Position numbers: made by a program. A DNA stretch of 64,000 nucleotides from Escherichia coli (GTDB lineage Bacteria; Pseudomonadota; Gammaproteobacteria; Enterobacterales; Enterobacteriaceae), in NCBI RefSeq assembly GCF_048403405.1, contig NZ_CP183129.1; one strand, written 5' to 3'. Every line of letters begins with the position of its first letter. Within the stretch, counting starts at the first letter, position 1. Of this stretch, positions 56,866 through 59,800 are shown in pieces.

Positions 56866-59800
56866 TCGCTGCCAGCCAGGCAACGCTCAATCCACTGCGC
56901 CGTGGTTTCCGGATCTTTTGCTTGTGGCAGTAACTTGCTACCAGCAGGGTCCTGTTTTTCATACAGCACCCGCATCCCTTCATGGTCGATCAAATTGATT
57001 TGCGGGCAGCGCTGCGGATTAGCATACACTTCACCTTCAGTACCATGCATTAGTAGCGCCCGCCCGCCGATATCGCTAAAGAACTTCGCGACGCGTCCAA
57101 TGTATTCCGGATGCGAAACGCTGGAAAGACGCAGTGCCTCACCTTCGGCAAATGGCGTCGCCAGTTTCGCCAGGGTATGTGCACTGTTACGCACGCCCAT
57201 CCGCCAGCGCATCGCCAGTTGTTTTTCCAGCGGCGGGCAAAACGCGCCGACAGGCATAAACACCGGTTGATGTTCGTCGAGCTTCGCCTGCGCCTGCCCG
57301 CCGTGCAACGTTGGCGTAATACCCATCAGTTCGAAAATGGTTTCTGTCAGCACGCGGGTTGGATCTTCGCTAACCCCGTGAACCACCACAGGAAAACCGA
57401 GTTTATGCAGGAGAATCGCCAACAACGGCGTCAGGTTGGCCTGTTTACGCGCGCCGTTGTAACTGGGGATGACAATCGGCATCGGCTTGTCTGCAGGCGG
57501 CGTCAGCTTGATGGTGTGATTTTGCATGGCTTCGTAAAAGCCGAGCATCTCTGCTTCCCCTTCCCCTTTGATACGCAGCGCAATCAATACGCCGCCCAAC
57601 TCAAGGTCAGGGACTTCACCATTGAGCATATGGGCATACAGACCGCGCGCAGTATCCCGGTCTAAATCGCGCGCGTGGTTTTTCCCGCGCCCGATCTCTT
57701 TAATGATTTTGCGATAGTCCATTTACGACTCCTTACCTGACTCACATCATTAACGCCGCCGACGGCGTGGGGATTTCGTTTTTTCTTTCTTTTTAACTAT
57801 ACCTTCAGGGGCTTCCGGTTGCTCTATCGGAAATACCGGTAATGCATCCAGTAGCCGCTTGCCGTAGTTTTTGGTGAGCAAGCGTTTATCGTAAATCACC
57901 ACTTCGCCCCAGCAACCGTGGCTTCGAATCAGTCGCCCAACCTGCTGAATCAGGTTAAACGAGGCGCTCGGCAGGCTTTGCACCTCAAACGGATAGCGGT
58001 TGAGGCTTTTCAGCCATTCCCCTTCGGTGATCACCACCGGGCTGTCGATGGGCGGAAAAGCGATTTTGTGGATATGCACCTGGCTGAGCAGATCACCTTT
58101 CAAATCAAGCCCTTCGGCAAAGGACTGTAAGCCCACCAGCACACTACGCTCACCGTTGGCAACGCGTTTGCGGTGCAGTTCAACTAAGCGATAACGCGGC
58201 TGATCGCCCTGCACCAGCAACATCAGGCGTAAATCCGTCACATAGTCGAGAAAGCGCTGCATCGCCCGTCCGCTGGCAAACAGTACCAACATACCGAGAT
58301 GTTTTTTGCTCTCCACCTGCTCACGGAAAAAGGCCGCCATTTCAGCAATGTGCTGCTCTTCGTTGTCGATGGAAGGCTCAAAGCGCATCCGGGGAATAAC
58401 AATTTTGCCCTGTTCGCAGTGGTTAAAGGGCGAATCCAGCGCCACAAAGCGGTCGCCCGCTTTCTCTTTCAGACCACTCATCTCCTGCAAACGCGAAAAA
58501 CTGTTCAGCGAACGTAAGGTCGCGGAAGTGACAATAATGTGCGGAATACTGCGCCACAGCAGCCTTTCCAGCTGATCGCTGACACGAATACCCACACAGT
58601 GAAACCAGATATGCAGCTGCCCTTCGCGCTCTTCCCGCGTCGCCCATTTGGTCACCGGCGCACCGGAAGATTGCGCCAGAGACGCCAGCCGCCAGAGTTT
58701 GCTTTGCGCCTCGAACATCCCCAGCGCGCGGTTCATCTGTAAAATAAACCGATGCAGACGCACAATATCGTGGCTGCCGGTTTTCTCACTTAAATCGTTA
58801 AGAAATAACTCCGCCAGGCCACGCAGCATCTCGGTGAGTTTTGCCAGCCGCTGGCAGATCTCCAGCACTTCATCTGGCAGTTCGCCCATCGCAAAACGGT
58901 GCTCTGCCTCCTGCCCGGCAGGCATGTAGAGATTGAGAATGTTGTTTAACGAGGCGATAAGCTCATACAACTCTTCACAATGCGCATTCAAACGTTCAGG
59001 GATCGCCAGCGGCGGGATGGTCTTCGGGCGAAACTGCTCCATGCAGGTAGCGACCAGTTTCGTGAACAAGTCCAGCTGTAGCCGATACCACGGCGCGGTG
59101 ATTTCGGCACTCATCTCCAGCGCATCCCGCGCCACATCTGGCAGGTGATGACCTTCGTCCAGCACCAGCAGCAAATTTTTCGGGTCAGGCAATACGGCTT
59201 CGCTTTCCATCGCCGCCATCACCAGCGCATGGTTTGCCACCACCACTTCCGCTTCCTGAATCTCCCGACGAGCGACAAAAAACGGGCATTCGCGATAGTA
59301 ATAACAGTTGCGGTTGAGGCAGCTGGCTTTGTCGGTACTCAACCGACGCCAGAGATCATCATCAATGGCGATATCCGTATGATCGCGCAGACCATCCCAT
59401 TTATAAGTGTCGAGATCGCCCTTCAACTTTGCACAACGCTTTTGCTCTTCCTGATTGTTCGGCGTCAGCTCGTCGTCAAGAAACGCCAGCAGATCCTGTT
59501 GCGTGGGCTCGCCGTCAGATTTCGCGGGCAAACGTAGCGCCCACGACCAAAAGCGGCAGTGAATTTAAGATCGGGAATGATCTTTTTCAGCAGTGGCAAA
59601 TCTTTGCTGTAGATCTGATCCTGCAATGCCACGTTGGCGGTGCTCACCACCAGCGTTTTTTGCTCTTCGCGGGCAATGGCGATGCCGGGAATCAAATAGG
59701 AGAGCGTTTTCCCAACGCCAGTGGGGGCTTCAATCGCCAGATGCCGCCCTTCTTCTCCGGCCAGCGTTTTGGCGACGTCCGCAATCATCTGCCGCTGCGG

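Follow-up and report, generated by a model that had tools for sequence, protein, structure and literature searches.

Whether the isolate represented by this 64,000-nucleotide stretch of Escherichia coli DNA (the window) has lost its dinG helicase gene, by what event, and whether the AT-rich DNA beside the gene had any part in it, are the questions raised by a dinG locus on the minus strand that is read as two open reading frames joined out of phase (Table 1). The preliminary description of the locus ascribed the split to a deletion of about 13 nt near 59510 rather than to a homopolymer slip, on the strength of a count of 126 + 586 = 712 native residues against 716 in DinG. Alignment to intact alleles supports that reading in kind and in size: the residue count was exact, the loss is exactly 13 nt, and its junction falls at 59511/59510. 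Relative to the intact dinG of strain TUM14771 there is a single 13-nt gap and no mismatch across the other 2,138 nt, and the C-terminal remnant shows 100% nucleotide identity to that allele. Relative to dinG of K-12 MG1655 (b0799) the same lone 13-nt gap (K-12 sequence GCTCGCCAGTACT) is accompanied by 72 ordinary substitutions. The deleted bases are gene nt 378-390, in codons 126-130, corresponding to L127, A128, S129 and T130 plus one base. The sequence at the gap reads ...CTGACGGC[GCTTGCCAGCACT]GAGCCC..., with the missing bases in brackets; the site is not a homopolymer, and the microhomology at its edges amounts to 1 nt (G). When 421 nt around the site were compared with 5,426 complete E. 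coli genomes by megablast, every match exceeded the length of the query by 13 nt.

The frame is broken past codon 126 with respect to K-12. The native N-terminal frame ends in ...GRYVCPRNLTA and continues into SPRNRICWRFLTTS, and the downstream frame is open over 59531-57750, from TTG 59531 to a stop at 57752-57750, carrying EPTQQDLLAFLDDELTPNNQ... through to the normal DinG C-terminus. Both pieces match the NCBIfam equivalog NF008729 for DinG, an XPD/Rad3-type SF2 Fe-S helicase, the N-terminal piece over profile positions 2-129 (212 bits) and the C-terminal piece over positions 133-702 (822 bits; cutoff 598), and together they give a full-length match to the model. Once the 13 nt are restored the gene has the same 716-codon frame as in K-12, with five residue differences from K-12 DinG, and the intact protein matches PDB 6FWR/6FWS across 716/716 residues. 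The locus is also the same as that of the intact K-12 gene (rhlE ... dinG-ybiB-hcxB).

Table 1. Features of the dinG region, in window coordinates.
Feature	Coordinates	Strand	Description or basis
ybiB	56760..57722	-	320-codon ORF, intact; downstream gene of the dinG-ybiB operon
C-terminal dinG remnant	57750..59510	-	native codons E131-R716 and stop, not in phase with the start codon
N-terminal dinG remnant	59465..59887	-	start ATG at 59887; 126 native codons, 14 out-of-frame codons SPRNRICWRFLTTS, TGA stop 59467-59465
Overlap of both open dinG frames	59465..59531	-	67 nt, beginning at TTG 59531 and ending with the N-terminal frame's stop
Deletion junction in dinG	59510..59511	-	13 nt GCTTGCCAGCACT absent between the two bases
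LexA (SOS) box TATTGGCTGTTTATACAGTA of the dinG promoter	59902..59921	-	exact string located; unchanged
Accessory segment replacing ybiA between rhlE and dinG	59983..64000		boundary by comparison with the ybiA-type arrangement; GC content
espX2-type (SopA-like) type III effector gene, 670 aa	62183-60171	-	NCBIfam SopA-like matches; annotation in relatives

The consequence for the protein follows from where the break falls. The intact allele has its cysteines at residues 120, 194, 199 and 205 and the GKT of Walker A at 58-61. Cys-120, Cys-194, Cys-199 and Cys-205 are the [4Fe-4S] ligands of DinG and K60 is required for its ATPase activity (PMC5679670), while the FeS domain forms an insertion in motor domain 1, and helicase activity is severely impaired when this domain is disrupted (PMC11981726; structure paper PMC6300356). 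All four cluster cysteine codons are present in the window, Cys120 being encoded in the N-terminal frame and Cys194/199/205 in the downstream one; the C-terminal remnant holds these three together with the remaining helicase motifs, and no continuous frame of ~716 codons links Walker A (K60) with the other helicase motifs. The separation of Cys120 and Walker A from the other Fe-S cysteines and helicase motifs, proposed in the preliminary description, was confirmed with the positions checked in the intact allele. Translation from the normal LexA-controlled start would give a 140-residue product comprising Walker A and Cys120 followed by 14 wrong residues, which would be unable to complete the four-cysteine [4Fe-4S] site or the helicase core, and any restart product of the downstream frame would be without Walker A/K60. 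Given what K60 and the four cysteines are known to do, dinG in the window, read from its sequence, is a null allele as encoded, a pseudogene and not a functional family member.

The sequences on either side of the coding region are preserved. The string TATTGGCTGTTTATACAGTA, which we take to be the dinG SOS box, is identical to that of K-12 MG1655, as are the ATG and the 95 nt upstream of dinG. The ybiB gene, which starts 27 nt past the dinG stop, has an open ORF with no differences from strains 4621 and MS 69-1, and the earlier statement that the LexA box, the start codon and ybiB are intact was therefore correct. The dinG-ybiB operon is under LexA control (PMC10123104), and the arrangement in the window, dinG-ybiB with a LexA box upstream, has the layout of the SOS regulon, with LexA binding predicted. 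Since the dinG stop at codon 141 is followed by 1.7 kb of untranslated message, expression of ybiB may be lowered by Rho-dependent polarity; a consensus scan of 56700-60200, which is a weak form of evidence, found no sigma-70-like promoter able to drive ybiB.

The occurrence of the deletion in other genomes was assessed with a 141-nt query centred on the junction, for which any carrier of the deletion would be expected to show nearly 100% identity. Among the 5,426 complete E. coli genomes searched, 5,418 gave full-length matches, none of which has the deletion (best match 92.6%). The junction string was likewise not found in metagenome contigs, in species-representative genomes or in any comparison locus retrieved for this analysis, and the truncated N- and C-terminal DinG products, with seven alternative starts, are absent among ~15 billion proteins. 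The nearest relatives of the window (strains 4621, MS 69-1, TUM1226, TUM14771 and GN02461 and record OX030728) are 99.9% identical over 20 kb, and all six retain the 13 nt and an intact 716-codon dinG. Because only 2-3 SNPs in 64 kb separate the window from its nearest relatives, in which dinG is intact, the deletion, if it exists in the organism, would be a very recent, strain-private event.

It is somewhat more probable than an even chance that the deletion is a real, recent and strain-private mutation that made dinG a pseudogene. The principal rival, to which we assign a considerable probability short of even, is an assembly or consensus-polishing artefact, in which the dinG of the isolate is intact and the 13 bases were lost in consensus building. 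The comparison with near-identical genomes bears directly on this alternative. Compared with strain 4621, the 64 kb of the window show 3 SNPs and 4 indels, and compared with MS 69-1, 2 SNPs and 3 indels. Its private changes comprise one SNP (9208), a shortening from A4 to A3 in gsiA, a shortening from T6 to T5 in rlmF, and the 13-nt dinG deletion. On the private branch the indels outnumber the SNPs 3 to 1, and all three indels are deletions that break reading frames. Three frame-breaking indels against one SNP is unusual for natural divergence between near-identical isolates, given known mutation spectra, and because of this excess the assembly probably contains consensus indel errors.

The two single-nucleotide indels have the character expected of such errors. 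In gsiA (minus strand, ORF 18818..20521) the change from A4 to A3 at ~20579 causes a frameshift near the 5' end, giving an ORF of 567 aa in the window versus 623 aa in the relatives; the A3 state occurs in 0/5,425 complete E. coli genomes, and the exact product of the private GsiA fragment is not on record in the protein collection. In rlmF (minus strand, ORF 49843..50727) the change from T6 to T5 at ~49895 alters the C-terminus, giving 294 aa versus 308 aa. This T5 state is common to two RefSeq complete genomes only, and the exact 294-aa product is found in 65 blocks of a large public collection, in unrelated lineages; in several of the assemblies that have it the neighbouring genes are fragmented. 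The rlmF T5 state looks like a recurrent homopolymer under-call.

The private SNP at 9208 is G here and A in both 4621 and MS 69-1, and is located between bssR and rimO, 12 nt before the start codon of rimO. Between rimO and dgcI, at ~10771-11476, the window carries genes for a RelE/ParE-family toxin and a helix-turn-helix protein; the annotation of strains 4621 and MS 69-1 treats the two as a type II toxin-antitoxin pair.

An artefact at dinG would also agree with the deletion being a pure singleton, and with the absence of the window's source genome from the 5,426 complete genomes, which do include its six near-identical relatives; this absence would fit an exclusion for an excess of frameshifts. 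The class of error required is nevertheless unusual. Consensus errors of the common platforms are mostly of 1-2 nt at homopolymers, and the gsiA and rlmF indels belong to this usual class, whereas the dinG deletion is larger (13 nt), lies outside any homopolymer and removes ordinary-complexity, single-copy coding sequence. The residual error density is in addition low, at ~2 per 64 kb. A real mutation is further supported by two RefSeq-grade complete genomes that have private small dinG deletions of their own in the same 141-nt stretch. Weighing against it, the junction and its products are missing from every independent assembly, metagenome contig and protein record searched, and neither a repeat nor a hairpin explains the deletion endpoints. 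The window shares its singleton frame break on a branch of few SNPs both with ordinary strain-specific E. coli pseudogenes and with long-read or 454-type indel errors; either way, real or artefact, the dinG lesion is ordinary.

Under the favoured reading of a real mutation, the loss of 13 nt would be a repeat-independent event. The endpoints have no direct repeats beyond 1 nt, and DNA folds of the intact allele, run on both strands and at two lengths against shuffled controls, revealed no hairpin more stable than those of the shuffles (z -0.57 to +1.39); slipped mispairing between repeats or across a hairpin was rejected on these grounds. Candidate mechanisms for such a deletion include polymerase skipping, end joining after a break and topoisomerase-mediated illegitimate recombination. 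The deletion would persist since dinG is dispensable under ordinary growth. Null mutants of dinG show only minor sensitivity to UV and H2O2 (PMC11981726), and growth suffers chiefly when rrn operons are inverted or when rep, uvrD or rnh is defective as well (PMC2770101); because single mutants show only mild phenotypes, the null allele would be tolerable, at least in the short term.

The two other dinG lesions were found in E. coli ST131 strain MB1341 (NZ_CP174453.1), which has a 5-nt GCACT deletion, and in E. coli strain 455 (NZ_CP183146.1), which has an 11-nt TTTTGGGCGTG deletion. Both genes are annotated 'frameshifted', and both deletions are singletons within the stretch equivalent to window 59441-59581. 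The MB1341 deletion shares its right-hand edge with that of the window, just before GAGCCC. Strain 455 was rejected as a further lesion at this edge, its alignment revealing a separate 11-nt deletion 40 nt upstream of the window's and with no microhomology. Both resemble the window in being private small deletions in the same 141-nt stretch with 0-1 nt of microhomology, but they differ from it in size, left edge and lineage and in having no espX2 island, and are independent events. Another partial-coverage record in the junction search was not a large lesion, since coverage of the intact 154-nt query was 80% or more in 5,420/5,420 genomes.

Three private dinG deletions (13, 11 and 5 nt) fall within ~55 nt among ~5,400 genomes. 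As controls, three other stretches of the gene (nt 801-954, 1301-1454 and 1801-1954), each given an artificial 13-nt deletion, were searched by the same procedure and produced no partial-coverage record and no shortened top match, so that two, possibly three, lesions in the real stretch compare with none in the controls; under a uniform distribution the chance of two lesions is ~1/16 (1/64 if three). It is doubtful, with a low probability, that gene nt ~335-390 form a small repeat-independent deletion hotspot, or that dinG is recurrently inactivated in extraintestinal clinical isolates. The clustering is suggestive only, and agrees equally well with a technical and with a mutational hotspot.

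The preliminary description described the adjacent AT-rich DNA as newly acquired and suggested, while calling it speculation, a link between this DNA and the break in dinG. Homology to the K-12-type rhlE-ybiA-dinG arrangement stops at 59982/59983, and from 60171 onward the accessory segment has a GC content of 33%, versus 54.5% for dinG. RefSeq names the 670-aa effector EspX2 or "type III effector" in the relatives, and a 561-aa hypothetical gene begins in the segment and runs off the end of the window. A copy of the effector gene, at 95.7-100% identity, occurs in 541/5,426 complete E. coli genomes, O157:H7 among them, and because of this distribution the segment is old, widely distributed accessory DNA, which contradicts a recent acquisition.

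A causal role of the island, in which its insertion damaged dinG or the loss of DinG helps to tolerate foreign DNA so that the deletion was selected, is very improbable. The boundary of the island lies ~470 nt from the deletion, and this physical proximity is the only point in favour of a link. Carriers of the effector gene were counted and the dinG site was checked in all genomes: the site is undeleted in 541/541 carriers, so strains with the island do not generally have a broken dinG, and the link was rejected. The six closest relatives combine a near-identical island with an intact dinG, the promoter region between the island and dinG is identical to K-12, and the other two small dinG deletions occur in strains without the island, which have ybiA or a ybiA remnant instead. 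The deletion would have arisen long after the acquisition of the island and independently of it, and the dinG break does not show that horizontally acquired DNA and genome-maintenance genes interact.

Least credible of all is that the split dinG still functions, whether through -1 ribosomal frameshifting where the two frames overlap (67 nt) or through cooperation of two polypeptides: over 59531-59465 both frames stay open, and TTG 59531 could in principle start the downstream frame, but the overlap contains no X XXY YYZ slippery heptamer, this TTG is the only early start in the downstream frame and on direct reading has no convincing Shine-Dalgarno, the restart product would lack Walker A/K60, the N-terminal fragment has one of the four cluster ligands, and the arrangement is conserved in no other genome searched (0/5,418), on which grounds a programmed frameshift or recoded dinG was rejected.

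If the dinG deletion is an artefact, it serves as a warning that the assembly has frame-breaking indel errors (in gsiA, rlmF and perhaps dinG), and that pseudogene calls made from it would be untrustworthy without the reads. If, as we favour, the deletion is real, the isolate would be a natural dinG null, possibly with low ybiB, and could be used to probe the role of DinG in wild extraintestinal E. coli, in the removal of R-loops and in conflicts between replication and transcription.
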